A DNA stretch of 61,075 nucleotides from Pseudomonadota bacterium (GCA_041163625.1 JBEARB010000234.1:1-61075); one strand, 5' to 3'. Shown: positions 17,601-33,427, counted from the stretch's first letter. Notes: generated from the sequence alone by a model not told the origin. Program-made: numbers and translations.

Positions 17601-20066
17601 TCAGTTCTTCACGTTCTCCAGCAGAACACAGAACTTCTGGATGTTGGTGTCGTTGAACGTGACGGCCGAGTAGCCGGCGTCGTTCTCGTTGTGGCCCCAC
17701 GAATTCAGGCCACCGAAGTAGAGGCCGGAGGTACCGGACTGCCAGTAGGCGTGGTTGTTCCAACCCATGATCGTGTTGCGCGAGAAGGTCAGGAAGCCCG
17801 ACGGACAGCTCGTCGTGTAGCGCGGTGCGCGGACCTGTGCGGAGGGACGACCGGTCCGCGGCAGCATCTTCCAGCACACGTTCTTCACCTCGCCCGGGGT
17901 GAAGTGCACATGACGGTAGATGTTCGAGTGGCTCCAATCGTAGAGGTAGCCCAGCGCGCTGCCGGTCGCGTGCGTCGACAGGTAGATCCGGTTGCCGTTG
18001 CCAATCGACTGTGTGGTCGACTTGTTCCAGCCAGTGGGGCACTCGTTTTCGTTGTTGTGCATACCGAAGAAGACCGGGTAGACGCCGTTGGCCGTCTCGG
18101 GATCCTCGGTCGTGCCGTATACCTTCACACAGGCGCCGGCGAACTGCCCGCTGTTCTGCCAGTAGCGGTAGTACGAGCCGCCATCCTCGGTGTGCGGGTT
18201 CGAGGCCGTCGACCAGGTGTCGACGTAGCCGAGGTAGAAGCCCCAACGATTGGACTGATGATAGACGTGGTTGTTGTTGCCGCGCAGCTGGGCGTGCGTG
18301 AAGTTGTCGTAGCCCTCGGGGCACTGGTAGCCGCTGCCGGTGTAGTTGATCATCGACACGTGCGGCCGGCCCGCCGGGGCGTCGTAGGCCTTCCAGCACA
18401 CCGCCGACTTGTCGCCGCCGTTGTTGCCGTAGTTGAAGCCGGCGTAGATGTACTCTTGACCGTAGCCGTTGCCCTGATTGTCGGTCAGCACCATGCCGCC
18501 GCCGTTGATGTGGATGTACACGTAGTTGTTGCTGCCGCGCAGATCCTTGCTCAACTCGACGTTCCAACCCTCGGGGCAGTGAATTGGGTCTCGCACAGCG
18601 ACAACCGCGTAGTACTTTCGGTTCTCACGGGTGACGGCAGGAGCGAGTGTACTGTTGGATACGTCGACGGTGCCGGCGATGGTGGCGCCATTGGCGACCT
18701 TGAGCCCACCCTTCACGTCCACGTTCTTGTCGATGTACTGCGATCCGGTGGCGTAGGTGTCGCCGTTGATAGCGATCTTCTGGTTCGAGAGCGTCTGGAT
18801 GGTGATGTTCCATGCCACGATTTCACCGTCGGTTTTGCCATTGGGATCACACAGCGTGGAGTTGCCCGGCGCCTGCGGGATGCAATAGCTGGTATCGGTG
18901 ACCTTGACCGACCACAGGCCCTGCGGATTTTGACCAATCCACTTCGCGAGGTCACCCGACTTGGGCAGCGCGTCCTTGGTGTAGGTCTTCTTGAAGGCCT
19001 TGGCGTCCTTGTCGCCGCAGGGGTCGCAGAGCGTCCAGCCGGTCTTCTTGTCGTCGGGCGGCAGCACCGTGATGGCCACCGTCGACAGGTCGGTGTTCTT
19101 CAACTCGACGGTCAGCGCGAAGGTCTGCGACACGCCGATATTCGGGAAGGTCATGCTCGAGATCGCGTCCGCGCCGGTGTTGTCGGGGATCTTCACGCCC
19201 TTGGCGCCTTGGATCGTGTCGACGAACTGGTTGCTGATGAGGTCGTTGCTGATCTCGTTCAGGCCGTCCTTCGGCAGGGCGGCGGGGTCCATCGCCGCCA
19301 CGCACTCGAGCGTGCCGTCGGCCTTGATGCCCTTGACCACCTCACCGGCCTTGCTGCAGGTGCCCGCCGGTGTCTTGATGCCGGTGAGCTTGCTGCCGTC
19401 GCCGACGAACGAGGTCGCGGTCACCGTCTTGGCGCTCACGTCGCCCGAAAAGGTGCCGTTGGCGGCCTTGAGGCTGTTGCCGCCGAGGTCGACGTCGCCG
19501 TCGAACTTCAACTCGGCGACCGAGACGCAGCCCGAGCAAGCCAGGTCGAGCGCGGGGCCGCCCTTGGTCGAGCTGCCAGCGTAGTTGAAGCCGAGCTTTG
19601 CCGCGGCGATGGCGCCGTTGGCGATCTGATCGCCGGAGACGCAGCCGGTGCAAGCGAGCGCGCCGGCGCTCTTGGCGTACAGGGCGTAGATGGCGCTGTG
19701 CAGCGGCTGGCGCGGAAGCTCGGGGTCGCTCCCGACCGCGATGCCCATCCACGGCGCGGTGGCGAGCTCGTCGAGCTTCGCGCCCGAGAAGTCGACCGCG
19801 AGCGCGAAGCGACCACCGGCAACGTCGGCCGAGATCTTGCCGGAGGTCCAGTGGGCGCTCTGCGCGTCCTTGGCGGTGTAGACCGAGACGGTGATGTCGT
19901 ACTTGCCGTCGGCAGCAGGGGCTCCGCCGGCCGAAGTCAGTACGCCCTCGAGCAGGCTGGTGTTCGGCACCGACGCGAACGCGGGCGCCGCGCCGCAGGT
20001 CACGGCCAACAAGCCGATGCCACACGCGAGCGCCCGCAGGCCTCGCATCCCGTTCGACATGCGCAT
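17601..20066 (-). CDS. Secreted fibre/adhesin-like protein A: YQG-like N-domain, P-domain, four CPxG[WYF] repeats
   Basis: Signal peptide ending APAFA; LLEGVL..GKY..W..GGRF..DPELPR..YALYA; FVGDGSKLTGI; IPDN...GLW.VKVTD...W.I (proprotein convertase P-domain-like); paralog of 24369-26108. Confidence 0.8.
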   Translation of the reverse strand: MRMSNGMRGLRALACGIGLLAVTCGAAPAFASVPNTSLLEGVLTSAGGAPAADGKYDITVSVYTAKDAQSAHWTSGKISADVAGGRFALAVDFSGAKLDELATAPWMGIAVGSDPELPRQPLHSAIYALYAKSAGALACTGCVSGDQIANGAIAAAKLGFNYAGSSTKGGPALDLACSGCVSVAELKFDGDVDLGGNSLKAANGTFSGDVSAKTVTATSFVGDGSKLTGIKTPAGTCSKAGEVVKGIKADGTLECVAAMDPAALPKDGLNEISNDLISNQFVDTIQGAKGVKIPDNTGADAISSMTFPNIGVSQTFALTVELKNTDLSTVAITVLPPDDKKTGWTLCDPCGDKDAKAFKKTYTKDALPKSGDLAKWIGQNPQGLWSVKVTDTSYCIPQAPGNSTLCDPNGKTDGEIVAWNITIQTLSNQKIAINGDTYATGSQYIDKNVDVKGGLKVANGATIAGTVDVSNSTLAPAVTRENRKYYAVVAVRDPIHCPEGWNVELSKDLRGSNNYVYIHINGGGMVLTDNQGNGYGQEYIYAGFNYGNNGGDKSAVCWKAYDAPAGRPHVSMINYTGSGYQCPEGYDNFTHAQLRGNNNHVYHQSNRWGFYLGYVDTWSTASNPHTEDGGSYYRYWQNSGQFAGACVKVYGTTEDPETANGVYPVFFGMHNNENECPTGWNKSTTQSIGNGNRIYLSTHATGSALGYLYDWSHSNIYRHVHFTPGEVKNVCWKMLPRTGRPSAQVRAPRYTTSCPSGFLTFSRNTIMGWNNHAYWQSGTSGLYFGGLNSWGHNENDAGYSAVTFNDTNIQKFCVLLENVKN

Positions 20067-20112
20067 GAGTCTCTCCCCTCCGAGTCCAATGCTGTCCGGC
20101 CTCGGTGACGCG

Positions 20113-20141
20113 AAACTAGCAATTCCACCAACGCGCAGCAA
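20113..20141 (-). promoter_or_regulatory. Possible sigma70 promoter for fibre A
   Basis: Minus strand TTGCTG-N17-TAGTTT with extended -10 TG, about 45 nt upstream of the ATG. Confidence 0.4.
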
Positions 20142-20169
20142 CGGCGTGTGGAGGGTCCTCACAAAAGTC

Positions 20170-20217
20170 ACGACCGCGGCGCTTCGGGGGACGAGAATCC
20201 CGATGCGCCGCGGTCGT
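20170..20217 (-). terminator. Intrinsic terminator candidate downstream of the YceI gene
   Basis: Perfect 13-bp stem ACGACCGCGGCGC/GCGCCGCGGTCGT plus inner TCGGG/CCCGA; followed by GACTTTTG on the minus strand. Confidence 0.55.
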
Positions 20218-20291
20218 AGGGAGCGTCGGACCAAGCCGACCGGAGTCGAAGTCGTCGAGGGGCCGGCGGCACGACTCGCGTGGGAGCCGGG

Positions 20292-21002
20292 CTAGCCCTT
20301 CGCGTGGATCTCGAGCACGACGCCGTCGCGGATGAGGTCGTCGGCCTTGCCCGGGTACTCGATGCCGAAGTCCTTGCGGTTGATGCTGAACTTCGCGCTC
20401 GCGTCGACCTTGCCGCCGTCGAGCTTGATGGTCGCGGGGAAGCTGACGTCCTTGGTCACACCTCGGATGGTGAGCTTGCCGTTGACGGTGTGCGTCGCAC
20501 CGTCGGCGCCGCCGGTGACGATTCTGGTCGAGGCGAAAGTCGCCTTCCGGTACTTCTCGACGTGGAAGAAGTCCTCGCTCTTGAAGTGGCCCTCGAGCTT
20601 CTTGCTCCAATCGGTCGGGGCCTTGTAGTCGGCCACGACCGAGGCGGTGTCGACCTCGAACGAGAGCTTGCCGCCCTCGGCCTTGCCGTCGGCGGGCTCG
20701 AAGTTGCCCTTCCACTCGGTGAACTTGCACTCGTGCGATGCCGTGACCTTGCTGCCGGTGAACAGCACGTCACCGCTGAGCGCGATGGCTGCAGCGGCCG
20801 GCGCGGCGGCAGCGGCCTCGACCTTGGCCTCGGCCGGCGCCGCGGCGGGCGCTGCTGCCGGAGCGGCGGCTGCCTCGGCGGCGGGGGCGGCGGCTTCGAC
20901 CTTGGCCGCCGGCACTTCCTTGGAAGGATCCTTGGCGCAGCCAGCGAAGGTGACGGCGGCGGCGAGGACCGCCGCGAACGAGAAACGGGTGATGAGGTTC
21001 AT
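20292..21002 (-). CDS. YceI family lipoprotein
   Basis: Lipobox FAGC, Ala/Pro linker, HFKSEDFFHVEKY, GKLTIRGVTK, INRKDFGI. Confidence 0.9.
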   Translation of the reverse strand: MNLITRFSFAAVLAAAVTFAGCAKDPSKEVPAAKVEAAAPAAEAAAAPAAAPAAAPAEAKVEAAAAAPAAAAIALSGDVLFTGSKVTASHECKFTEWKGNFEPADGKAEGGKLSFEVDTASVVADYKAPTDWSKKLEGHFKSEDFFHVEKYRKATFASTRIVTGGADGATHTVNGKLTIRGVTKDVSFPATIKLDGGKVDASAKFSINRKDFGIEYPGKADDLIRDGVVLEIHAKG

Positions 21003-21150
21003 GACGGACTCCTGAGCGGATGTTGGGTCCGGGCGCCGAGAGGTGCGCCCTGTCGAGACTGGACAATATCCATGCCCGAGAATGCGACAATCCCCGCATT
21101 CACCAACACATCGTTCCCATGGAGGAACGAACCTCCCGCGTGGGGTCGGC

Positions 21151-22425
21151 TCAGGGACTACAATCGTCGATTTCGGCAGGTGCCGCGTAGAGCTGCTTGA
21201 GGAAGGTCTCGACGCTCGCTTGGCTCAGCTTCGCGTTGTCGCACACGCGCATCACATCGACGTATTTCGTGGTGAAGAAGCCGGCGAAGCTGGCGAGCGA
21301 GTCGTTGCGGCGCAGCTCGAGCGTACCGACCCGATACAGCGCGGCGAAGTTGAGTTCGCTGAGCTCGTCGTTGTCCATCACCTCCAGCGTCGTGATCTCG
21401 GACGTCTTGCCGAACGCGACGAGCTTGCCGAGCGTGGCGCAGTCGTGGACGCGCAACAGCGCGAGTTTCGCAATCGCCGAGAACCCGTTGACGACCCCGA
21501 GCTTCGGGCTGCCGGCGATCTCGACCTGGCCGACCTTCTGCAGCTTCGGGAAGGTGTCGATCGCGAGCAGACCGGGATTGTCGAGGATCTGCACGCTACT
21601 GGCCGCGCCGAGGTCGAACAGACCGTTGACCTTGACCAGGTCGCGGTTGTCGCGAATCTCGAGCGGCCCCTCGATGGACGCGAGGCGCTCGAGCGCGACC
21701 AAGCTGGTCAGGCGCTGGTTCTCCGCGATCACGACACCGCCGGCGCCCACCGTGCGTAGTCCCTCGAGGCCGACGAGATCGGTCAAGCGGTCGTTGTCGA
21801 TCAGCTTCAACGCATTGTTGAGCGAGACGATGCCCTCGAGACCGGCGAGTGACTCGAGCGCCACGTTGCCCTGCACGAGCAGCCCGCTCGTGACGCTGGT
21901 CAGCGCGTCGGTGCCGAGCGAGCGCAGCGCAGTGTTGTCGCGGATGACCAGGTCGTGGCCGATCGACTCGAGCGCCCGCAGCCCAGCGAGCGTCGTCAGC
22001 TCGCGGTTCTCCAGGAGCGCCACGTCGCCCGCCACGGTCTTCAATCGTGCGAGCGCCTCGAGGTCGGTCGCGGCGACGCCCTGGACGAAGAGGCTGCCGG
22101 AGATCGTGCGCAGGTTCCCGAGCGGGGCGAGCTGGGCCTTGTCGAGCGGCACCCCGGGCGAGGCGATCAGCCAGACGTCGCCCTCGACCGCGCAGTGGGT
22201 CGCCAATGCGGCGGGCGGCGGGCTTCCGTCCTCGCCGACCGAGCCGTTCCAGACGGGGCAGCTCGCGACGTCGTCGATGACCTCGAAGTTCGCGCCCGCC
22301 CCGCCCGATCCGGCGCCGTCTTGCGCGGTCGCGGCATCAGCGGCCGGGTCGTCACTGCCGCCGCATCCGGCCAGAGCCAGCCACGCCACTCCGAGCAGGA
22401 CGCACCGCCACACGGCACGTTCCAC
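21151..22425 (-). CDS. Receptor L-domain / LRR-like lipoprotein
   Basis: Lipobox LAGC; repeated LxxLxGLxxLxxV/IGxxLxIxxN units; GAGG before GTG (start approximate). Confidence 0.8.
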   Translation of the reverse strand: MERAVWRCVLLGVAWLALAGCGGSDDPAADAATAQDGAGSGGAGANFEVIDDVASCPVWNGSVGEDGSPPPAALATHCAVEGDVWLIASPGVPLDKAQLAPLGNLRTISGSLFVQGVAATDLEALARLKTVAGDVALLENRELTTLAGLRALESIGHDLVIRDNTALRSLGTDALTSVTSGLLVQGNVALESLAGLEGIVSLNNALKLIDNDRLTDLVGLEGLRTVGAGGVVIAENQRLTSLVALERLASIEGPLEIRDNRDLVKVNGLFDLGAASSVQILDNPGLLAIDTFPKLQKVGQVEIAGSPKLGVVNGFSAIAKLALLRVHDCATLGKLVAFGKTSEITTLEVMDNDELSELNFAALYRVGTLELRRNDSLASFAGFFTTKYVDVMRVCDNAKLSQASVETFLKQLYAAPAEIDDCSP

Positions 22426-22542
22426 GGCGTTGCCTCGGGAGGGCTCGCCTTGCGAGGGTCGAGCGCCTTCTCTATGCTCCGGTGCGCCTCCGCGACGGCC
22501 CGTGCCGCCGGTACCCACTGCGCCTGCCCACCTGGAGCGTCG

Positions 22543-24336
22543 ATGCGTCTGTTCGTGCACGGTCCTTCTCCGGTCGATGGAACGCCGACGCGCGCTCCGC
22601 TCTGGCCCAGCCGTCGGATCGGCGCAGGCGCCCTGCTGCTCGCGATCATGGTCGGCTGCGGCGCGGACGACAAGGGCGGCACCGACGCGGGGACCGATAG
22701 CGTGCTGCCGCTCTTCGACAGCGGCGGCGGCGGCGTCGAGTTCGACGCGGCCGGCACCGACGCCGACACCGTCGAGACCAAGGAAGGCTGCCCCGGCGCG
22801 GCGGACTGCAACTGCGTCGGCAACGCGGACTGCGACTCGGCGCTGTGCATGGCCTACGCCGACGGCAAGCGTTGCGCCCGGCTGTGCGTCGATGGCGGCT
22901 GCCTCACGGGCGAAGTCTGCGTCCCGGTCCAGACCGGCACCGACACCATCACCGCTTGCGCGCCCGTTCACGCGCGCTTGTGCGATCCGTGCGACGAAGA
23001 CAACGACTGCAACGGCGCCGGGATCACCGGCGGCGTCTGCGTCGATCGCGGCCCGGCCGGCGCATTCTGCGGCACCGCGTGCGAGGGCGACACCGACTGC
23101 CCGCAGGGCTATGCCTGCGGCGACGTGAACTCGCTCGGCGGCACCGCCGCGAAGCAGTGCGTCCCGAAGGACGAGGCGCTCTGCACCTGCAGCCCGGCCG
23201 CCATCGCCAAGGAGCTCTCCACCGCCTGCGCGGTGCAGGGTGAGGGCGGCGCGAGTTGCCCCGGCAAGCGCGCCTGCCTGGCCGACGGCAAAAGCGACGC
23301 CCCGGCCGGCGGCGGCCTCTCGGCGTGCCTGGGCAAGGCCCCCGGCCCCGAGGTGTGCGACGGCAGCGACAACGACTGCGACGGCTCGACCGACGAGGGC
23401 ATCGACGGCTGCGACGACGGCAACCCGTGCACCATCGACACCTGTGATCAGAGCCTGGGCTGCGTCCACAACCCGAGCGCCGCCGGCTGCGACGACGGTG
23501 ACGCGTGCACGGCCGAGGATGCCTGCGTCAAGAGCGGCACGGACGTCGTCTGCCAAGGCAAGGCCATCGATTGTGACGACAACGACGCCTGCACCACCGA
23601 CGCCTGCGACGCGACCGCCGGCTGCACCCACACTGCGAGCGGCGGCGCCTGCGACGACGGCGATCCCTGCACGGACAAGGACGTCTGCGGCGAGGGCGGC
23701 TGCGCCGGCACGGCGACCGACTGCGACGACGGCAACCCCTGCACCGCGGACAGCTGCGACGTGACGTCGGGCACCTGCACGGCGGTGCCGGTCGCCGGCG
23801 CCTCGTGCGACGACGGGGACGTGTGCACCGCGGGCGACGCCTGCGCCGACCTCGGCGCAGGCGTGGTGGGCTGCGCCGGCGGCGTGACCTCGACCTGCGA
23901 CGACGGCAACAGCTGCACGACCGACGCCTGTGACAGCGTCACCGGCTGCACGAACACCGCGAACATCGGCCAGATGCAGTCCTGCTACGACGGTCCGCAG
24001 GGCACGCAGGATATCGGCACCTGCGTCGCGGGTATCGCCACCTGCCAGGCCAACGGCAGCCTCGGGGCGTGTACGGGCGCGGTGAAGCCGAACCCGAACG
24101 AGGCCTGCGACGGCTTCGACGACGATTGTGACGGAAGCACCGACGAGGGCTGCAACGCAGGCCCGGTGAAGGTGCATTGGCGGTTCGCGGGCGCGTCGCT
24201 CGCGGGCGCCTCGGGCGAGAAGAAGGTCCGTGCATTGACCGGCGTCTCGGGCGTCGGCGGCACCTGGCAGGGCGCTGGCGGCAACAAGTCCGTCGGCGTG
24301 GGCTTCCTGCAGGCGCTGCGGGCGTTCGGGCTCTAG
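22543..24336 (+). CDS. Cys-rich repeat lipoprotein (CDDGNxCTxDxC and ExCDGxDNDCDG motifs) with a short Gly-rich C-terminal motif
   Basis: GGAG + ATG; lipobox MVGC; many repeats; N-terminal module shared with 30206-33427. Confidence 0.85.
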   Translation: MRLFVHGPSPVDGTPTRAPLWPSRRIGAGALLLAIMVGCGADDKGGTDAGTDSVLPLFDSGGGGVEFDAAGTDADTVETKEGCPGAADCNCVGNADCDSALCMAYADGKRCARLCVDGGCLTGEVCVPVQTGTDTITACAPVHARLCDPCDEDNDCNGAGITGGVCVDRGPAGAFCGTACEGDTDCPQGYACGDVNSLGGTAAKQCVPKDEALCTCSPAAIAKELSTACAVQGEGGASCPGKRACLADGKSDAPAGGGLSACLGKAPGPEVCDGSDNDCDGSTDEGIDGCDDGNPCTIDTCDQSLGCVHNPSAAGCDDGDACTAEDACVKSGTDVVCQGKAIDCDDNDACTTDACDATAGCTHTASGGACDDGDPCTDKDVCGEGGCAGTATDCDDGNPCTADSCDVTSGTCTAVPVAGASCDDGDVCTAGDACADLGAGVVGCAGGVTSTCDDGNSCTTDACDSVTGCTNTANIGQMQSCYDGPQGTQDIGTCVAGIATCQANGSLGACTGAVKPNPNEACDGFDDDCDGSTDEGCNAGPVKVHWRFAGASLAGASGEKKVRALTGVSGVGGTWQGAGGNKSVGVGFLQALRAFGL

Positions 24337-24368
24337 GCGTGCGACTGCGACGGAACGGAGGAGACGTG

Positions 24369-26108
24369 ATGAACCAGCTCAGCAAGATGCTGCGGGCGAC
24401 GGGCGTGTTGCTGGCCCTGCTGCTGGCGGCGCCGGCCTTCGCGGCGGCGCCCAAGACGATGCTGCTCGAGGGCTACGTGCACACCGCGGCGGGCCCGGCC
24501 CCGGACGGCAAGTACACCCTCACGTTCTCGCTCTACGGTGCTCAGAACGCCGCCACGTCGTTCTGGCAGGAAGCTGGCGTCGCGGTGGACGTCGCCGGCG
24601 GTCATTTCAGCTACGCGCTCGGCACCAGCAAGCCGCTCGATCCCGCCCTGCTCGCCAACGCGACCGAGGTTTGGGTCGGCCTGAAGGTCGACAACGACCC
24701 GGAGCTGCCGCGGAGCATGATGCATGCGGTCGGCTTCGCGCTGCGCGCGGCCGTCGCCGATCTCGCCATCGGTCTGGGCTGCACCGGCTGCGTGAAGGCG
24801 TCGTCGATGAATTGGGACGCCGACATCGATCTCGCCGGCCAGAGCCTCAAGGCGACGCAGGTCACCGCCAAGACCGTCAATTCGGCCACCGTCATCGCGC
24901 AGGAGTTCGTCGGTGACGGAAGCAAGCTCACCGGCATCAAGCTGCCCAACGGCAGCTGCCCGAGCGGCCAGGCCGTCACCGGCATCAACGCCGACGGCAC
25001 CCTGGCCTGCAAGAAGCTGACGGCCGATACCCCGACCGGCTCGCTCGAGGCGGTGTCCGGCGGCACGATCACCAACGAGTTCTCCAACGTCGAGTCGGCC
25101 CCGACGAAGAACGTCTCGATCCCCGACAACACCGGCCTCGACGCGCTCTCGACGATCACATTCCCGGACGTCGGTGTGGCGAAGACGCTGTCGATCACCA
25201 TCGATATCGAGAGCTCGGACCTCTCGCAGGTCGCGATCACCATCCTGCCGCCCGACGACAAGAAGGTCGGCTATACGGTGTGCGATCCCTGCGGCAAGGC
25301 GGGCGAGAAGATCCTCAAGGCGACACTGCCGGTGCCGATGGCACTCAAGACCGGAAGCCTGGAGCAGTGGGTCGGCCAGAACCCCAAGGGGCTGTGGAAC
25401 CTCAAGGTCAAGGACACCGGCTACTGCATCCCGCAGCTGCCCGGCAACAGCACGATCTGCGACGTGAACAAGGCCACCGACGGCTGGATCCACGATTGGA
25501 GCATCAACGTCGTGACGGTCAGCGCCAGCGACATCGCGGTGAAGGGGCAACTCGTCGCCTGGGGCGGCATCCGGGTCGGCGCCACCGGCGCGCCCTGCAC
25601 CGACAAGAACGTCGGCGCGCTGCGCTACACGACCGAGCTCGGGCTGCAGCTCTGCGACGGCAAGGCGTGGGCACCGGTCGCCGCCAAGAACGGCATCATC
25701 CACTACAGCGGCACCTGCACCAGCACGGCGAGCAGCAGCACCTACTCGTTCTGCTTGAACAAGGAGCTCTCGAATACGGCGCAGGACTACCTGACCGTGA
25801 CGACCACCGGCTATGGCGCCAACGACTTCAATACCGGCCGGGTGCTGATCAAGAAGCCGGGCTACTACCGCTTCTCGTTCAACCGCCGTGGCCGCGGCAG
25901 CTCGTGTCAGTGGTGGATGTACAAGTCGGGCACGCAGTTCGCGTACGGCTACCAGACCAAGTACTCGTCGAGCTACTACATCAACGATTCGGGCAGCCGG
26001 ATCATGCCGATGAAGGCCAACGATTACTTCAACCTGAAGTTCTACTGCAACAGCACGGCCTGGTACGCGAACGACACCACGCTCGACGTCGAGTACCTCG
26101 GCGAATAG
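24369..26108 (+). CDS. Secreted fibre/adhesin-like protein B: YQG-like N-domain, P-domain, C1q/TNF-like head
   Basis: GGAGGAG RBS; signal peptide APAFA; long paralogy to fibre A; GALRY...LQLCDG..W spacer; head with GRVLIKKPGYYRFSF and final LDVEYLG. Confidence 0.8.
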   Translation: MNQLSKMLRATGVLLALLLAAPAFAAAPKTMLLEGYVHTAAGPAPDGKYTLTFSLYGAQNAATSFWQEAGVAVDVAGGHFSYALGTSKPLDPALLANATEVWVGLKVDNDPELPRSMMHAVGFALRAAVADLAIGLGCTGCVKASSMNWDADIDLAGQSLKATQVTAKTVNSATVIAQEFVGDGSKLTGIKLPNGSCPSGQAVTGINADGTLACKKLTADTPTGSLEAVSGGTITNEFSNVESAPTKNVSIPDNTGLDALSTITFPDVGVAKTLSITIDIESSDLSQVAITILPPDDKKVGYTVCDPCGKAGEKILKATLPVPMALKTGSLEQWVGQNPKGLWNLKVKDTGYCIPQLPGNSTICDVNKATDGWIHDWSINVVTVSASDIAVKGQLVAWGGIRVGATGAPCTDKNVGALRYTTELGLQLCDGKAWAPVAAKNGIIHYSGTCTSTASSSTYSFCLNKELSNTAQDYLTVTTTGYGANDFNTGRVLIKKPGYYRFSFNRRGRGSSCQWWMYKSGTQFAYGYQTKYSSSYYINDSGSRIMPMKANDYFNLKFYCNSTAWYANDTTLDVEYLGE

Positions 26109-28836: not shown

Positions 28837-29619
28837 ATGGCGCGCTCCTCCGACCAGCCCGACGGAATCGAAGCACCGAAGCCGACACTCGGCCGGGTGG
28901 CGCGGCGACGCGAGCAGCGGCGCGACGAGATCTTGGCGCGCGCCGCGAGCTTGATCGCGAAACACGGCGTGGAGGGTCTGACTGCTGCGCGCCTGGCGGA
29001 GGCGGTCGGGCTGACGCCCGGAGCGCTCTACCGCTATTTCCCAGGCATGAACGCGGTCGTGGCCGGCGTACTGGGCGATATCCTGGCGCGGATCGCGCAG
29101 CGGCATACGCGCGCGTTGGCCGCGCTGGGCCTCGCGCCGGCGGTTCCCCGTGCCATCGCGGCGCTCTACCTCGAGTCGATGGTGCACGCCGAACTGGCGC
29201 GCGAGGCGCCCGAGCGCTTCGGCTTGCTGGCGGTGGCGATCGCCGATCCGCGCGAATTGGTGGGCGAGGAGCGCGCAGTCGCCGTGCGCGGTGCCACCTT
29301 CGACCTGCTGCAACGCAGCGCGTCGGCGTTCTCGGCGGCGCGCAGCTGTGGCGCCCTGCGCGACGATCCGCCGACGCTCCCGGACGGCGACCTCGACCAC
29401 GAGCGCGCGTTCGCTTGGACGTTCGCCGGCCACGGCCTGCTGACGACGCGAAAACTCGCGCGCCGCGCCGGTCAGGAAGCCCTGGTCGACCACCTGCACG
29501 GGCGGCTGCGCCGCGACTTGCTGCGTGCGTGGGGCGCCGAGGACGGACCGATCGCCGCAGGTCGCCGCCTCGCTCAAGACACCTGGGCCAGCATCGGCCC
29601 GCTGGAGAACACCCCATGA
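28837..29619 (+). CDS. TetR/AcrR family transcriptional regulator
   Basis: ILARAASLIAKHGVEGLTAARLAEAVGLTPGALYRYF helix-turn-helix. Confidence 0.9.
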   Translation: MARSSDQPDGIEAPKPTLGRVARRREQRRDEILARAASLIAKHGVEGLTAARLAEAVGLTPGALYRYFPGMNAVVAGVLGDILARIAQRHTRALAALGLAPAVPRAIAALYLESMVHAELAREAPERFGLLAVAIADPRELVGEERAVAVRGATFDLLQRSASAFSAARSCGALRDDPPTLPDGDLDHERAFAWTFAGHGLLTTRKLARRAGQEALVDHLHGRLRRDLLRAWGAEDGPIAAGRRLAQDTWASIGPLENTP

Positions 29620-30176
29620 CCGCGCTCTCGTTGCTTCTGGTCGCGTTGCTCGGCGCCTTCGGTTGGACGCTGACGGAGTACCTCTTGCACCGCTTCGCCG
29701 GCCACAAACCGCGCGGCCGCAGCCCGCTGACGCGCGAGCACATGGCGCACCACGCCGACCCCGACTACTTCACCCCGTGGTGGCGCAAGCTGGCGCTGGC
29801 GGTGCCGGTGGTCGGCCTCGGCTCGGCGCTGACGATGCCGCTCTTCGGTCTGCACGGCGTCGCCTTCGTGCTCGGTTTCGTCGCTGGCTGGCTCGGCTAC
29901 GAGGTGCTGCATCGACGCATCCACACCCACGCGCCGCTCGGGCGCTTCGGCGATTGGGCGCGGCGGCACCACCTCGCGCATCACTTCACCGATCCGGCGA
30001 TGAACCACGGCGTCACGCTGCCGCTCTGGGACCAGCTCTTCGGCACGCTGCGCCCAGCGCCGCAGGTGCGCATTCCTGCGCGCCGTGTGCCGCGTTGGCT
30101 CGCGCGTACAGACGGCGGCATCGAAGAGCGGTATGCTGGCGTCTACGTGGTCGCCGGACGCGGCGGCCCGCGCTGA
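29616..30176 (+). CDS. Fatty acid hydroxylase / sterol desaturase family
   Basis: EYLLHRFAGH, HMAHH, YEVLHRRIH, HHLAHHF His boxes, NHGVT..WD..FGT; ATGA overlap. Confidence 0.9.
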   Translation: MTALSLLLVALLGAFGWTLTEYLLHRFAGHKPRGRSPLTREHMAHHADPDYFTPWWRKLALAVPVVGLGSALTMPLFGLHGVAFVLGFVAGWLGYEVLHRRIHTHAPLGRFGDWARRHHLAHHFTDPAMNHGVTLPLWDQLFGTLRPAPQVRIPARRVPRWLARTDGGIEERYAGVYVVAGRGGPR

Positions 30177-30205
30177 GCTCCCGAGCCGGCGCAGGGGAGG
30201 CTGGC

Positions 30206-33200
30206 TTGTTCGACGCCCACGTTCGCGCATTCGGTTCGCGCCCTGCCTTCGCGGGCGCCACGCTGCTCCTGCTCGCACTCGGTGCTTGCAGCGACGACAG
30301 CGGCACCAACAACAGCGGCATCGCCCTCGGCGACGTCTTCGGCGGCGGCGGCGCGCTCTTCGACGGCAGCGGCGGCGGCACCGACGCGGCCGGTCCCGCG
30401 GGGGACGCGAGCCTGGACTGCCCCGGCGGCGCCTTCTGTCCCTGCAACGACAACGCCGATTGCGACAGCAGCCTCTGTATCGAGAGCCCGGACGGCCGCG
30501 TCTGCGCGCAATTCTGCGTCGCGGATTGCCCGGAAGGTTGGGCCTGCAAGGTCGTGCAGCCGCCGGGCAGCGACGTCGTCACGATGTGTACGCCGCGTTG
30601 GGGCAAATTGTGCAACCCGTGCGAGGTGTCGAGCGAGTGCGATGCCCTCGGCGTGAGCGGCGCGCTCTGCCTCGACCTCGGCCAAGCCGGCGGCTTCTGC
30701 GGTGCGCCCTGCGGGGTGGACGCGGATTGCCCCTCGACCCATCGCTGCAAGCCCGTGCCCGGCAAGGACGGCGGCCAGGCGTCGCAATGCGTGCCCGAGC
30801 CGGTGGCCGGCGACGACGATTTGGCGGCCGGCTGTGCGTGCAGCAAGGCGGCGATCGCGGCCTCGCTCGCGACCAGCTGCGCCGTCGACGTGATCGGCGC
30901 CGGCGGCGCGGTCGTCGGCACCTGCGTCGGTGAACGCCGCTGCCTCTCCGACGGCCTCGGCGATTGCACCGTCCCCGCCGAGACCGTCGAGGTCTGCGAC
31001 GGCCTCGACAACGACTGCGACGGCAAGACCGACGTCGGCGCATGCGACGACGGCAACGCCTGCACCCTCGACGCCTGCAACCCCGGCGGCGACGGCGACG
31101 GCTGCACGCACACCGCGACCACCGGCGCCTGCGATGCCGACGGCGACGCCTGTACCGAGGGCGACAGCTGCGCGACCGGCACCTGCAAGCCCGGCCCCGC
31201 CAAGAATTGCGACGACCAAAACCCCTGCACCCTCGATACCTGCGATCCGACCAGCGGCTGCAAGCAGACGCCCGACGACGGTAAGCCCTGCGACGACGAG
31301 AACCCTTGCACCATCGGCGATGTCTGCGGCAGCGGCCAATGCCAGGGCGGCGCCGCGAAGTCGTGCACCTCGGGCGACCCCTGCGTCGACGCCAAGTGCA
31401 AGCTGACCTCCGGAAAGTGCGAGTTCTCCGACAAGCCCGAGGGTGCCCCCTGCGACGACGGCTCGCTGTGCACCACGGGCGACGCCTGCACGTCCGGCAA
31501 CTGCAGCGGCGTCGCGGCCAACTGCGACGACAAGAACTCCTGCACCCTCGACAGCTGCGAGGCCAGCACCGGCTGCAAACACCAAGCGACCACCGACGGC
31601 GGCGCCTGTGAGGACGGCAACGCCTGCACCAAGGGCGGCACCTGCAAGGCGGGCGCCTGCGTCGGCGGCGTGGCCGGCACCTGCGACGACGGCGACCCCT
31701 GCACCGAAGACTACTGCGACCAGGTCACCAACACCTGCAAGGCCAACCCCAAAGCGGGCTGCGGCAACTATTGCGGCAAGCCGGCCGACTGCGCCGACGA
31801 CGGCAACCCGTGCACGACGACCGTCTGCGACGTGCCCGCCGGCGCCGCCGTGGGCACGTGCGGCAAAGCCCCGCAGAGCGGCGCCTGCGACGACGGCAAC
31901 CCCTGCACCCAGAACGACGCCTGTGCCAATGGCGTCTGCGCCGGCCAGGGCAAGAACTGCGACGACGGCAACAACTGCACCGTCGACGCCTGCGACGCGC
32001 AGACGCAGGGCTGCACGCACGCGGCGAATTGCACGCTCGGCCAGGCCTGCCAGGGCGCCGGCGACTGCAAAGAGGGCGCCTGCATCGACGGCAAGTGCAC
32101 GGCCGTCGCGCAGTGTCGGCCGATCGGCAAGACCTCGACCGGCGCGCTCGGCGCGATCAGCCTCTCGGGTAGCGCCGTCATCGACACCGACGCCGGCACG
32201 ATCGTGCAGGGCAGCAAGACCGTGGTGGCGGCCGGCGCAGCGGGCGTCGAGTTGGTCCCCGGGCCAGGCGGTCAGGGCCCGAAGCTGCGCGTCTTCCACG
32301 TCGAGAGCTTCACGGCGGCGCTGAACGCGACCGTCACCGTGCAGGGCAGCTTCGGCTTGGTCATCGTCGCCAAGGCGGGCGTGAACATCAGCGGCACGCT
32401 CGACGCGCGCGGCAAGAACGGCACCGCCGGCGGCGAGAACACCGGCGGCACCGGCGGCGCGGGCGGCCCGGGCGGCAGCGCCGGCGGCAGCTGGAAGAGC
32501 GGCCCCGGCTGCGACGCCAGCAACGGCAACGGCCAAGGCCCCGGCGGCAGCCCGCGCGGACAATGCGGCGGCGGCGGCCAGAAGGGCGGCCAGGGCACCA
32601 ATGGCGGCGGCGCGGGTGGCGGCGGCGGCGGCTGCGGCGGCACGGGCGGGCCCGGCGGTAGCTACGCCAACCCGGGCGAGACGGGCTACGCCGGCGCGGC
32701 CGCCGAGAACGGCAAGAACGGCCTCGGCTTCGCGGGCGCCGGGGTGGGCGGCGGCGGTTGCCTGCAGGCCGCGGGCGACGCCGGTCCCGGTCAGCCCTAC
32801 GGCGACGACGCGATGACCGTCTTCTGGGGCGGCAGCGGCGGCGGCGCCGGCGGCTTCGGCGGCTTCCACGGCTTCGGCGGCGACGCCAAGGGCACCGACG
32901 GCGCGGCCTACGGCGGCTTGAAGGGCTTCTCCGGCGGCAGCGGCGGCGGCGGCGGCGGCGGCGGCCTGGTCGTGCTCTGCGGCGGCGCGGACGTCTACGT
33001 CAGCGGCACGGTCGACGCCAGCGGCGGCAACGGTGCGACGGGCGGATCCTCCGGCTTCCCTGAGAACGGCGGCTCGGCCGGGTTCACCGCCAAGCAGCCG
33101 GTCGGCGGCGGCGGCGGCGCGGGCCGTTCCGGCGGTGGCGGCGGCGGCGGCGGCGGATCGGGCGGCACGATCTTCCTCTCGGCGCCGAAGATCGTCGCGA

Positions 33201-33427
33201 GCTCGGGCAAGCTCCTGACGGCGGGCGGCACCGGCACCAGCGGCGGCTTCGCCTTCAGCGGCGGCCAAGGCGGCCCCGGCAAGAACGGCGGCAGCTTCGG
33301 CGGCAACGGCGGCGCCGGTGGCAAGGGCGGGGCCGGAGGCAAGGGCTCGATCGGTCGGATCCGCGTCGAGGCAGGCAGCGCCGCGCTCGGCAACTACACC
33401 GGCAAGCTCACGCAGGGGGGCTTGTAG
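30206..33427 (+). CDS. Large Cys-rich repeat lipoprotein with a C-terminal glycine-rich domain
   Basis: GGGGAGG + TTG; lipobox LGAC; many CDDxNxCTxDxC repeats; C-terminal GGxGG tracts with GGSGGTIFL and GRIRVE. Confidence 0.85.
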   Translation: MFDAHVRAFGSRPAFAGATLLLLALGACSDDSGTNNSGIALGDVFGGGGALFDGSGGGTDAAGPAGDASLDCPGGAFCPCNDNADCDSSLCIESPDGRVCAQFCVADCPEGWACKVVQPPGSDVVTMCTPRWGKLCNPCEVSSECDALGVSGALCLDLGQAGGFCGAPCGVDADCPSTHRCKPVPGKDGGQASQCVPEPVAGDDDLAAGCACSKAAIAASLATSCAVDVIGAGGAVVGTCVGERRCLSDGLGDCTVPAETVEVCDGLDNDCDGKTDVGACDDGNACTLDACNPGGDGDGCTHTATTGACDADGDACTEGDSCATGTCKPGPAKNCDDQNPCTLDTCDPTSGCKQTPDDGKPCDDENPCTIGDVCGSGQCQGGAAKSCTSGDPCVDAKCKLTSGKCEFSDKPEGAPCDDGSLCTTGDACTSGNCSGVAANCDDKNSCTLDSCEASTGCKHQATTDGGACEDGNACTKGGTCKAGACVGGVAGTCDDGDPCTEDYCDQVTNTCKANPKAGCGNYCGKPADCADDGNPCTTTVCDVPAGAAVGTCGKAPQSGACDDGNPCTQNDACANGVCAGQGKNCDDGNNCTVDACDAQTQGCTHAANCTLGQACQGAGDCKEGACIDGKCTAVAQCRPIGKTSTGALGAISLSGSAVIDTDAGTIVQGSKTVVAAGAAGVELVPGPGGQGPKLRVFHVESFTAALNATVTVQGSFGLVIVAKAGVNISGTLDARGKNGTAGGENTGGTGGAGGPGGSAGGSWKSGPGCDASNGNGQGPGGSPRGQCGGGGQKGGQGTNGGGAGGGGGGCGGTGGPGGSYANPGETGYAGAAAENGKNGLGFAGAGVGGGGCLQAAGDAGPGQPYGDDAMTVFWGGSGGGAGGFGGFHGFGGDAKGTDGAAYGGLKGFSGGSGGGGGGGGLVVLCGGADVYVSGTVDASGGNGATGGSSGFPENGGSAGFTAKQPVGGGGGAGRSGGGGGGGGGSGGTIFLSAPKIVASSGKLLTAGGTGTSGGFAFSGGQGGPGKNGGSFGGNGGAGGKGGAGGKGSIGRIRVEAGSAALGNYTGKLTQGGL

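Follow-up and report, generated by a model that had tools for sequence, protein, structure and literature searches.

A family of putative fibre-like recognition proteins with exchangeable heads, predicted to be trimeric and remotely related to the mosaic adhesive trimers of Bdellovibrio

The closest named relatives of the proteins described here are the mosaic adhesive trimer (MAT) fibres with which the predator Bdellovibrio bacteriovorus takes hold of its prey, in particular the non-S74 subgroup, e.g. Bd2439 and Bd2734 (Caulton et al. 2024, PMC10769870). The sections of that report used here count 21 MATs in strain HD100, 13 of them bearing S74, and describe Bd2734 and Bd2740 as short MATs lacking beta-helices; its Supplementary Tables 3 and 4 catalogue relatives of MATs from other bacteria and may already include such proteins as ours. 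In a window of 61,075 nucleotides (the whole stretch of DNA that was analysed) from a 5.5-Mb genome, we characterized two open frames, P0001 (17601..20066, minus strand, 821 aa) and P0002 (24369..26108, plus strand, 579 aa), and found computationally a shared scaffold, recognisable domain folds, homology of the N-domain to MATs, a predicted trimer and a diversity of heads. On balance, and with considerable reserve, we favour the explanation that both are Sec-exported homotrimeric fibre-like recognition proteins of a lineage-specific branch of the MAT superfamily, which would be anchored at the cell surface, bind glycans and recognise prey or partners, the host being an uncultured aquatic Myxococcota family.

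BLASTP aligned residues 36-449 of P0001 with residues 30-415 of P0002 (185/426 identical, 43%, E 2e-102), a roughly 35-aa insert in P0001 corresponding to its second CxGC-containing stalk segment. Past 'QKIAINGD' in P0001 and 'SDIAVKGQ' in P0002 no further similarity better than E 1.8 was found, and the shared scaffold, its abrupt end at 'IAxxG' and the unrelated C-termini, all claimed in a first-pass annotation of the sequence, were thus borne out. Because the scaffold DNA of the two genes is only 72-81% alike, in arms of no more than 218 nt, the comparison points to old paralogues and disfavours a recent duplication or an invertible cassette. Genes for surface proteins (YceI, a Receptor-L/LRR lipoprotein and Cys-rich Dicty_CTDC proteins) surround the window locus.

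On the minus strand, P0001 starts with a signal peptide read by eye (residues 1-31, 19974..20066, ending ...APAFA before SVP), followed by the MAT-like N-module assigned by profile comparison (residues 33-132, 19671..19970), a long stalk with two CxGC segments, assigned by homology to the P0002 stalk (residues ~133-232, 19371..19670, predicted trimer), a Cys-clasped hairpin mini-domain (C237...C255, 19281..19370), a furin-type P-domain with four conserved Cys (347, 350, 395 and 406, 18762..19238, fold modelled for the P0002 homologue) and a head made of a linker and four repeats (17604..18761; repeats at 18366-18620, 18084-18365, 17850-18083 and 17604-17849). On the plus strand, P0002 has the same order: signal peptide, also read by eye (residues 1-25, 24369..24443, ending ...APAFA before AAP), beta-rich N-module (residues 27-128, 24447..24752, pLDDT ~90), short stalk (residues 129-190, 24753..24938), Cys-clasped hairpin (C197...C214, 24939..25028), P-domain (residues 235-390, 25071..25538, Cys 305, 308, 353 and 364 being invariant family-wide), a neck (C410...C429, 25554..25691) whose motif C..x..G....C.G..W is common to most paralogues, and a C1q/TNF-like jelly-roll head (residues 442-579, 25692..26105).

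The N-module is a beta domain of about 100 aa directly after the signal peptide, with no Pfam model. For a MAT reference set, a Pfam PF13884 search of B. bacteriovorus strain s4 gave 13 fibre genes with S74, a count equal to that reported for HD100; we cut out their N-domains, which start with 'LTYQGRIL' and end with 'SVPFA'. An N-module profile of 20 sequences matched these 13 N-domains by hhalign end to end over 99 columns (probability 83.4%, E 8.5e-6), and none of 200 column-shuffled controls reached the real score (36.1 against a mean of 11.3 and a maximum of 19.2). The likeness to the TYQG...PYA domain of MATs had been proposed from the sequence, the profile comparison was set beforehand as its test, and the proposal held. 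The N-module HMM had no match in five Bdellovibrio or Pseudobdellovibrio genomes (E <= 0.01), nor the MAT N-domain HMM in this genome (E <= 1). The N-module is homologous to the MAT N-domains as judged from a single profile-profile comparison, and the relationship is remote, since HMM-to-sequence searches failed in both directions. The motif GDGSxLT, noted at the outset as common in trimeric fibres, stands at the end of the P0001 stalk (FVGDGSKLTGI) and is absent from all 13 Bdellovibrio fibre ORFs read.

Trimerisation was predicted for P0002 as anticipated. Three copies of residues 27-240 gave ipSAE values of 0.75, 0.76 and 0.76 (best of three controls 0.00), at a mark reached in the calibration of the tool by 20/30 proteins solved as pairs of one chain and by 1/23 solved as single chains. 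Since the tool was calibrated on two copies, our prediction, with three copies and its own alignment, lies outside that calibration. At least 92% of contacts were in common between runs (partner pLDDT at least 83), and the interface comprised residues 117-197, a stretch that covers the stalk and is disordered in the monomer model. The pass may reflect a likeness to triple beta-helices, which are well represented among solved structures. We predict that the family proteins are homotrimeric, and the C1q heads are consistent with this, as is a bridge form in the same genome (the C273 protein), in which the N-module in the classic form 'THQGRL...SVPFA' precedes collagen triple-helix repeats (Pfam E 5e-19), an obligate trimer motif, and a globular end.

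The embedded Cys-decorated P-domain was likewise recovered. Residues 237-385 of the P0002 model matched the furin P-domain (4omc, VIA Z 11.5, rmsd 2.5 over 119 residues) and the Aeromonas ASP P-domain (VIA Z 9.4). Pfam P_proprotein (PF01483) stayed under the cut-off in P0001 and P0002 (16 bits vs 21), was over it in 3/21 other paralogues scanned and reached E <= 0.01 in 14/21. No subtilisin catalytic domain was present in the P-domain-bearing proteins. Model and profile matches together indicate that the furin-type P-domain fold in this family is real.

Using the scaffold as a tblastn query, we found 27 places in the genome, comprising 19 whole genes, five cut at the 5' contig end, two cut at the 3' end and one with the N-module only; P0001 and P0002 are among the 26 scaffold loci. 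Members are about 580-850 aa long, with a stalk of 60-100 aa between N-module and hairpin, and a signal-peptide-like leader stands at every visible N-terminus. The scaffold was present in 37/37 genomes and 14/14 genera of the same taxonomic family, mostly with tens of matches; in a sample of the phylum, 136/301 genomes matched at E <= 1e-5, the matches being strong in 23/23 members of the taxonomic family and weak or partial elsewhere. Relatives include metagenome-assembled genomes with the source names 'Myxococcales bacterium' and 'Deltaproteobacteria bacterium', which fits the myxobacteria-like host suggested at the outset. Near-identical DNA turned up in waters from fresh to marine, in 20 runs that belong to 10 studies. 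One RNA-seq run yielded small contigs within both genes; as DNA can occur in RNA libraries, these contigs do not establish transcription.

The expectation of many C-termini on one scaffold was confirmed, this genome by itself showing at least nine head classes. Among its 24 visible heads were 12 putatively fibrinogen-like, three C1q-like and one TLDc (E 1e-26), as well as the four-repeat head of P0001, and CTHRC1_C was found on proteins of relatives (E 1e-37). Fibrinogen_C or COLFI reached E <= 0.01 in 12/21 other paralogues, of which only the match on contig C110 spans profile positions 19-204 of 221, the rest covering the first ~50. The two heads in the window are unrelated, as had been claimed: that of P0001 has four homologous repeats, 78-94 aa long and with a single Cys pair apiece (CPxG[WYF] at residues 497, 582, 676 and 754), for which no known fold was detected (AF2 pTM 0.80), and this head is also present in proteins whose stalk differs or that lack a P-domain. 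That of P0002 matched C1QL1 (4d7y, VIA Z 16.4, rmsd 2.1 over 123 residues) and EDA (1rj7), with a Foldseek probability of 1.0 and TMt of 0.72-0.80 (0.80 to C1QL3). Its sequence identity to C1q is 15-18%; Pfam C1q was under the cut-off (16 bits vs 23.7), and one orthologue (P0012) has a precomputed PF00386 hit.

The recognised head folds are those of soluble animal lectins, which raises another reading: that the proteins are released rather than anchored, as bacterial counterparts of ficolins, collectins and C1q. Once secreted, the trimers would agglutinate or opsonise other cells or polymers or else form extracellular matrix, with the N-domain serving oligomerisation. The signal peptide is of type I, and the family sequences read showed neither a lipobox nor a transmembrane segment nor any recognisable sorting signal; no anchoring partner or conserved neighbour gene was found beside the family loci; and 4 of the 150 best database hits carry three to four N-modules in tandem, an arrangement that does not fit a purely terminal-base role. 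However, about 25 paralogues retain the N-module under changing heads, which fits a common docking site, and the MAT fibres, which carry the homologous N-domain, are shown on the surface of Bdellovibrio cells in the sections used of PMC10769870. We therefore consider release unlikely.

In a tree of 21 scaffolds, C1q-headed P0002 was sister to a TLDc-headed paralogue (support 97/93) and P0001 to one whose Cys-repeat head differs from its own (support 100/98), while C1q heads required three changes, at least two of them forced by well-supported branches. Heads have thus been exchanged between closely related scaffolds. Orthologues in other genera retain the same heads, and contigs that other studies yielded stay near-identical through the P0001 and the P0002 head alike; head diversity lies between paralogues and not between alleles or populations, and the word 'polymorphic' in the first-pass annotation applies in the former sense but not in the latter. 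The same stability weighs against self- or kin-recognition or cohesion adhesins, acting in social behaviour (aggregation, outer-membrane exchange) and not on prey or foreign ligands. Myxobacteria recognise kin via polymorphic surface receptors such as TraA, a precedent for this idea, and the location of the window locus among surface-protein genes would suit it; such loci, however, differ between strains, and we regard this role as distinctly improbable. Hardly any credence can be given to the reading that these proteins serve a phage-derived particle, such as a prophage, a tailocin or an extracellular contractile injection system (eCIS), as its tail fibres or receptor-binding proteins: fibres of phages and eCIS typically have C1q/TNF-like heads and swapped tips, the P0002 head structurally matches cyanophage and lactococcal phage receptor-binding domains, and a catalogue of eCIS receptor-binding domains reportedly exists (PMC12923769), but every visible N-terminus has a signal peptide, the loci are spread across 24 contigs with no adjoining phage or sheath genes, and PHROGs gave no tail-fibre family for P0001 or P0002.

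Under the surface-fibre explanation that we favour, the N-terminal beta domain would act as the base and keep the fibre attached to the cell, by analogy with the MAT proposal, followed by a short intertwined trimeric stalk, the disulfide-clasped hairpin, a lateral furin-type P-domain, the Cys-clasped neck and the exchangeable head. The heads would mostly be lectin-type folds (fibrinogen-like, C1q/TNF-like and TLDc here, CTHRC1-like in relatives), next to the four-repeat head without a recognised fold, and each fibre tip would bear three copies of its head. With about 25 fibres per genome, the cell would be able to bind a wide range of surface ligands; glycans carried by other cells, by prey or by particles are the most likely ones.

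The family shares features with several known systems. Tail fibres of phages and eCIS are also trimeric, with a conserved proximal part and exchangeable distal binding domains, and their receptor-binding domains are matched by the P0002 head, whereas the family is cellular, Sec-exported and unlinked to particle genes. BclA-type exosporium fibres and F-ENA tip fibres of Bacillus are trimeric surface filaments with a terminal C1q/TNF-like head (P0002 head vs BclA, 1wck, and vs F-BclA, 9h38, Z 14.6 each), and the C273 protein has the identical order of N-domain, collagen repeats and globular end; they have another N-terminal attachment domain, however, and neither a P-domain nor a swapped-head family. 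Animal trimeric lectins (ficolins, tenascin-type FReD proteins, C1q/C1QL/cerebellin, CTHRC1) likewise carry C1q- or CTHRC1-like globular heads, and the fibrinogen-like heads to which those of the 12 paralogues putatively correspond, C-terminal to a trimerising stalk and have diversified the head in large paralogue repertoires, but the family stalk is neither collagen nor coiled coil except in C273, its base and P-domain have no counterpart there, and identity to C1q heads is low. MAT fibres come closest: in both, a signal peptide precedes a conserved beta-rich N-domain without a Pfam model (~130 aa in MATs), homotrimers are predicted, one end is conserved while C-terminal tips are exchangeable in repertoires of 21 (HD100, as given in the sections used of PMC10769870) and about 26 here, and TNF/C1q-like tips occur (P0002 head vs Bd2439 tip, 8ol4, Z 9.7). 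Unlike the ~1000-aa beta-helical MATs, the family is short in length and stalk, its tips are mostly putatively fibrinogen-like, TLDc or new, and no direct HMM search connects the two families. Peptidase_S74 (PF13884) had 0 matches in this genome (93% complete) vs 13 in B. bacteriovorus s4, although this chaperone is not required of non-S74 MATs; the Cys hairpin, the Cys neck and the P-domain with its four conserved Cys set the family apart, the P-domain being absent from all 13 Bdellovibrio S74-fibre ORFs. Relative to the MAT kind, the novelty is that S74 is absent and a P-domain is borne.

We found that the two fibre genes of the window, P0001 (17601-20066 on the minus strand, an open frame of 821 aa) and P0002 (24369-26108 on the plus strand, an open frame of 579 aa), share one scaffold and carry unrelated heads, as the first-pass annotation had claimed. 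Residues 36-449 of P0001 aligned with residues 30-415 of P0002 by BLASTP (185/426 identical, 43%, E 2e-102), and the one insert of about 35 residues in P0001 was a repeat of the CxGC-containing stalk segment. The similarity indeed stopped abruptly after the 'IA..G' motif, with a best remaining score of only E 1.8 past 'QKIAING' / 'SDIAVKG'. The shared DNA of the two genes was only 72-81% alike, in arms of at most 218 nt. P0001 and P0002 are thus old paralogues, and recent duplication, gene conversion and an invertible cassette were rejected.

The AlphaFold2 model of P0002 (119-sequence alignment, mean pLDDT 83.2, pTM 0.52) had a confident N-module, which is the N-terminal beta domain of about 100 aa after the signal peptide, at residues 30-120, a low-confidence stretch at residues 127-181, a small hairpin at residues 190-220, a very confident domain at residues 235-390, and a neck followed by the head at residues 442-579. 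VIA-align against 48,161 PDB representatives placed residues 237-385 on two P-domains, that of furin (4omc, Z 11.5, rmsd 2.5 over 119 residues) and that of the Aeromonas ASP (Z 9.4). Over 119 relatives, the stalk and the hairpin had two invariant Cys each and the P-domain had four; these four and the furin match uphold the earlier suggestion of an embedded, Cys-decorated P-domain. With the Pfam P_proprotein model, neither P0001 nor P0002 passed the threshold; among the 21 other paralogues, three scored above the cut-off and 14 reached E <= 0.01. The whole-family profile reached only E 0.21 against PDB sequences, and NCBIfam gave no meaningful match for the fibre proteins.

The two heads were of the kinds first described, a C1q/TNF-like domain and four CPxG[WYF] repeats. 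Residues 442-579 of P0002 matched the C1q/TNF domain of C1QL1 (4d7y, Z 16.4, rmsd 2.1, 123 aligned, VIA-align), BclA (Z 14.6), phage receptor-binding domains and the Bd2439 tip of Bdellovibrio (8ol4, Z 9.7), which belongs to a mosaic adhesive trimer (MAT) fibre; Foldseek agreed on the fold. In P0001, the CPxG[WYF] motifs at residues 497, 582, 676 and 754 defined four homologous repeats of 78-94 residues with nine invariant positions and one Cys pair per repeat. The model of this head was confident (pLDDT 80, pTM 0.80) from only 9 sequences; its best match among the 48,161 chains was Z 2.9, with none at Z >= 5 (VIA wide), Foldseek returned no PDB match at E <= 1e-3, the best TMq in BFVD was 0.16, and the ESM Atlas gave no usable match. 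Three collagen IV NC1 entries of the PDB (Foldseek, E 2e-3 to 2.5e-2, TMq about 0.22) are a lead only. Because the model rests on 9 sequences, we regard the four-repeat head as a candidate new fold and not as a finding.

With the scaffold (P0002 1-395) as tblastn query, the genome that the window comes from (5.49 Mb in 374 contigs, 93% complete) gave matches at 27 places on 24 contigs: 19 complete genes, five cut by the contig 5' end, two by the 3' end and one N-module only. All visible N-termini had, by eye, a signal-peptide-like leader ending in A-x-A, then '(V)P.T..EGVL..GG.PAADG.Y', and an alignment of 23 sequences was conserved to 'W.I...TLS..K(V/I)' and divergent after it. Two members lay a few kb apart on three contigs, the window included. 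The C-termini were catalogued for the 24 visible heads (Pfam scan of the 21 paralogues besides P0001 and P0002): 12 matched Fibrinogen_C or COLFI, three were C1q-like (P0002 and two paralogues matching its head at E 1e-19 and 5e-22), one was TLDc (E 1e-26), and the other eight, including the four-repeat head of P0001, made up at least six further classes without Pfam match or with the DUF4215 Cys-rich spacer only. Since only one Fibrinogen_C/COLFI match covered most of the profile, this class is named only 'fibrinogen-like'. All but one of these 12 heads finished alike at the extreme C-terminus, in (W/F/V/L)-x-V-R or V/F/L-R. DUF4215 spacers lay between neck and head in 10 of the 21 paralogues, and CTHRC1_C heads were also found on relatives in other genomes (E 1e-37 to 1e-39). 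A likeness seen by eye between the Gly-rich head on contig C363 and the Gly-rich tail of the window protein at 29525-33424 was rejected (BLASTP best E 0.91).

Outside this genome, at least 236 proteins were related to the scaffold at E <= 1e-5 in a word-indexed search that scored only the 8000 candidates with most words in common. All came from MAGs or metagenomes, with names, where given, of 'hypothetical protein', 'cysteine-rich repeat protein' or 'TLD domain-containing protein' and named sources of 'Myxococcales bacterium' or 'Deltaproteobacteria bacterium'. The scaffold was present in 37/37 genomes and 14/14 genera of the window's taxonomic family, mostly with tens of matches per genome (only 1-4 in two genera); these counts do not give the copy number. 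Of 301 genomes sampled evenly across the phylum, 136 matched at E <= 1e-5, strongly in 23/23 members of the family and weakly (1e-6 to 1e-34), mostly partially, outside it. Near-identical DNA occurred in 20 public runs of 10 studies labelled freshwater, lagoon, estuary, seawater, marine or aquatic. At window 19305-19588 (conserved stalk and GDGSKLTGI), three metagenome runs had a 5- to 20-fold depth spike and their contigs broke there, as expected of a family with many copies in those communities; such breaks over the conserved stalk probably explain why many members sit at contig ends in the window's own assembly.

The first-pass annotation had called the family polymorphic, with variable tips, and this could mean exchange between paralogues or variation between alleles. 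On a maximum likelihood tree of 21 scaffolds (371 columns, variable insert removed; two fragments and one C-terminal fragment left out), P0002 with its C1q head was sister to the TLDc-headed paralogue (support 97/93); the sister of P0001 (100/98) bears a different Cys-repeat head. C1q heads required three changes and fibrinogen-like heads five, at least two in each case being forced by starred branches, and the head of P0001 also occurred on the database proteins P0227, P0261 and P0262 with a different stalk or without the P-domain. Orthologues kept their heads (53-79% identity for full-length relatives of P0002, 43-79% for P0001); the pair is presumably syntenic in one related MAG, judging from locus tags 03965 and 03975 and a contig of the same size; and contigs of two other studies were near-identical over both heads, e.g. 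with one letter different over 17601-19026. Because orthologues keep their heads and these contigs hardly differ across them, the diversity is between paralogues and old, so the claim of variable tips stands between paralogues and falls for alleles.

Caulton et al. 2024 (PMC10769870) describe 21 MATs in B. bacteriovorus HD100, all with a conserved beta-rich N-domain of about 130 aa after the signal peptide and without structural homologue in the PDB, 13 of the 21 ending in the S74 chaperone (Peptidase_S74, PF13884); tips include TNF/C1q-like and C-type-lectin folds, and relatives in other bacteria are given there only in supplementary tables. In strain s4, we found 13 PF13884 matches and 13 open frames with N-domains running from 'LTYQGRIL' to 'SVPFA'. 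The proposed likeness of the N-module to this domain was borne out by profile-profile alignment (hhalign, 20 family sequences against the 13 MAT N-domains, probability 83.4%, E 8.5e-6, 99 columns end to end), with a score of 36.1 against a mean of 11.3 (sd 2.2, maximum 19.2) for 200 column shuffles of the MAT alignment and 10.2 for the reversed profile. Plain HMM searches failed both ways: the N-module HMM had no match at E <= 0.01 in five Bdellovibrio/Pseudobdellovibrio genomes, and the HMM of the 13 MAT N-domains none at E <= 1 in the window's own genome. On contig C273 of this genome (L031:1387-2919, plus strand), a 511-aa protein with a signal peptide carried the N-module in the classic 'THQGRL...SVPFA' form ('THQGRLLDADGKP...SVPFALVAG'), then a long run of GDK-type collagen triple-helix repeats (Pfam Collagen, E 5e-19) and finally a globular domain at the C-terminus; its sequence bridges the family-type and MAT-type N-modules, and its layout resembles BclA, but on a MAT-type base.

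Further, the S74 domain was absent from the window's own genome (93% complete), and the Pfam P-domain and the GDGSxLT motif each occurred in 0/13 Bdellovibrio fibres; a P-domain query likewise found nothing in five Bdellovibrio-type genomes. The Cys hairpin resembled by eye the 'C..G..L..DG....C' segment after the MAT N-domain, a likeness that hhalign did not support (probability 0.4%). The N-module profile matched 39,440 clusters at E <= 1e-3 and 16,108 at E <= 1e-10 in a 1.84-billion-protein library, yet no Pfam model matches the module in the window proteins, paralogues, relatives or 13 Bdellovibrio fibres, so that it represents a large uncurated domain family; in the Atlas it met only unnamed clusters from Verrucomicrobiota, Bacteroidota and Myxococcota. 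Among the matches listed, the proteins P0124, P0147, P0171 and P0258 each contained three to four tandem copies at a spacing of about 150 residues (hmmsearch, i-E 1e-7 to 1e-19), so that the module is an autonomous, repeatable domain and not an N-terminal cap only.

Three copies of P0002 27-240 were predicted as a trimer, the check proposed with the original observation (ipSAE 0.75, 0.76 and 0.76; best of three controls 0.00), with at least 92% of contacts in agreement and partner pLDDT of at least 83. In calibration, 20/30 proteins solved as one-chain pairs and 1/23 solved as single chains reached the tool's mark; these rates come from two copies and the calibration's own alignments and hold only roughly for this trimer. 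The predicted interface was residues 117-197, disordered in the monomer model. Its best pairs are shifted by some five residues from one chain to the next, which is also the case in an intertwined beta-stalk. Structures of triple beta-helical fibres have already been solved, so the pass may reflect likeness to them.

Three genes between P0001 and P0002 encode other exported proteins, one YceI-like; this interval holds a lipoprotein-like Receptor-L-domain/LRR protein (21151-22503, minus strand) and a Cys-rich protein with Dictyostelium-type CTDC repeats (Dicty_CTDC, 21955-24336, plus strand), and 29525-33427 encodes another CTDC protein, whose tail is long and Gly-rich. Over the CTDC repeat region 23281-23848, metagenome contigs broke and piled up (depth up to 3179). 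The start codon of P0001 is preceded, at a distance of about 100 nt, by a 19-nt inverted repeat (20170-20217) with 95% complementarity and a loop of 10 nt. The flanking genes were unrelated to fibres (PD40-amidohydrolase, PP2C-cNMP protein, amine-oxidase-like protein and thyA-folA, a thymidylate synthase/DHFR pair by eye from translations). The recurrent neighbours of 24 family loci were only family members, Cys-rich repeat proteins (seven loci, possibly a compositional effect) and Ser/Thr kinases (four loci), with no candidate mounting partner among them. The kinase genes lay within 6 kb of family loci on contigs C135, C273 and C344, one of them between two divergently oriented members on C135; since such kinases are abundant in the phylum, their adjacency may be chance. 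PHROGs gave no tail-fibre family for P0001 or P0002, and the many PHROGs matches of the C273 protein lay on its collagen repeats. In one RNA-seq run, small contigs in both fibre genes, weakly hinting at transcription, and a deeper one in the YceI gene were observed, the uncovered parts of the window being no evidence of silence.

Taken together, the evidence best supports a branch of the MAT fibre kind that is specific to this lineage, bears a P-domain and lacks S74. Each member would be exported and form a homotrimer in which base and stalk are constant and the lectin-type head is exchangeable, so that the cell could bind a wide range of ligands; we infer anchoring through the N-domain, glycan ligands and recognition of prey or partners from the case of Bdellovibrio and the roles of the head folds elsewhere. 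Literature searches found no description of such an architecture, nor of MATs in Myxococcota, a point on which the supplements to PMC10769870 may bear. Each genome would supply about 25 candidate lectins ready for testing on glycan arrays, and the family bears on how non-obligate predators and other attaching bacteria recognize many different targets. MAT fibres, from one genus, are to our knowledge the only characterized multi-tip repertoire, and the family would carry this principle into Myxococcota with a different body plan: compared with MATs, the Myxococcota fibres have a short stalk, a P-domain knob and disulfide clasps.

The head set is dominated by folds used in animal innate immune recognition; fibrinogen-like, C1q, CTHRC1 and TLDc heads are otherwise best known from metazoan innate immunity and matrix. 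A bolder reading, which we offer tentatively and consider rather unlikely as a whole, is that this uncultured aquatic family of Myxococcota has evolved a bacterial counterpart of the pattern-recognition repertoire that animals have in ficolins and C1q. Every genome would encode tens of MAT-based trimeric fibres in which the base is fixed, the P-domain forms a lateral knob and the heads (fibrinogen-like, C1q, CTHRC1 and TLDc, plus at least one four-repeat head of new fold) are interchangeable, and with these fibres the cell would recognize and grip prey or partner cells of many kinds. If true, predatory or attaching bacteria of different phyla would share MAT-type recognition as a general solution, and the Myxococcota heads would mark an old bacterial pool of 'animal' lectin domains.
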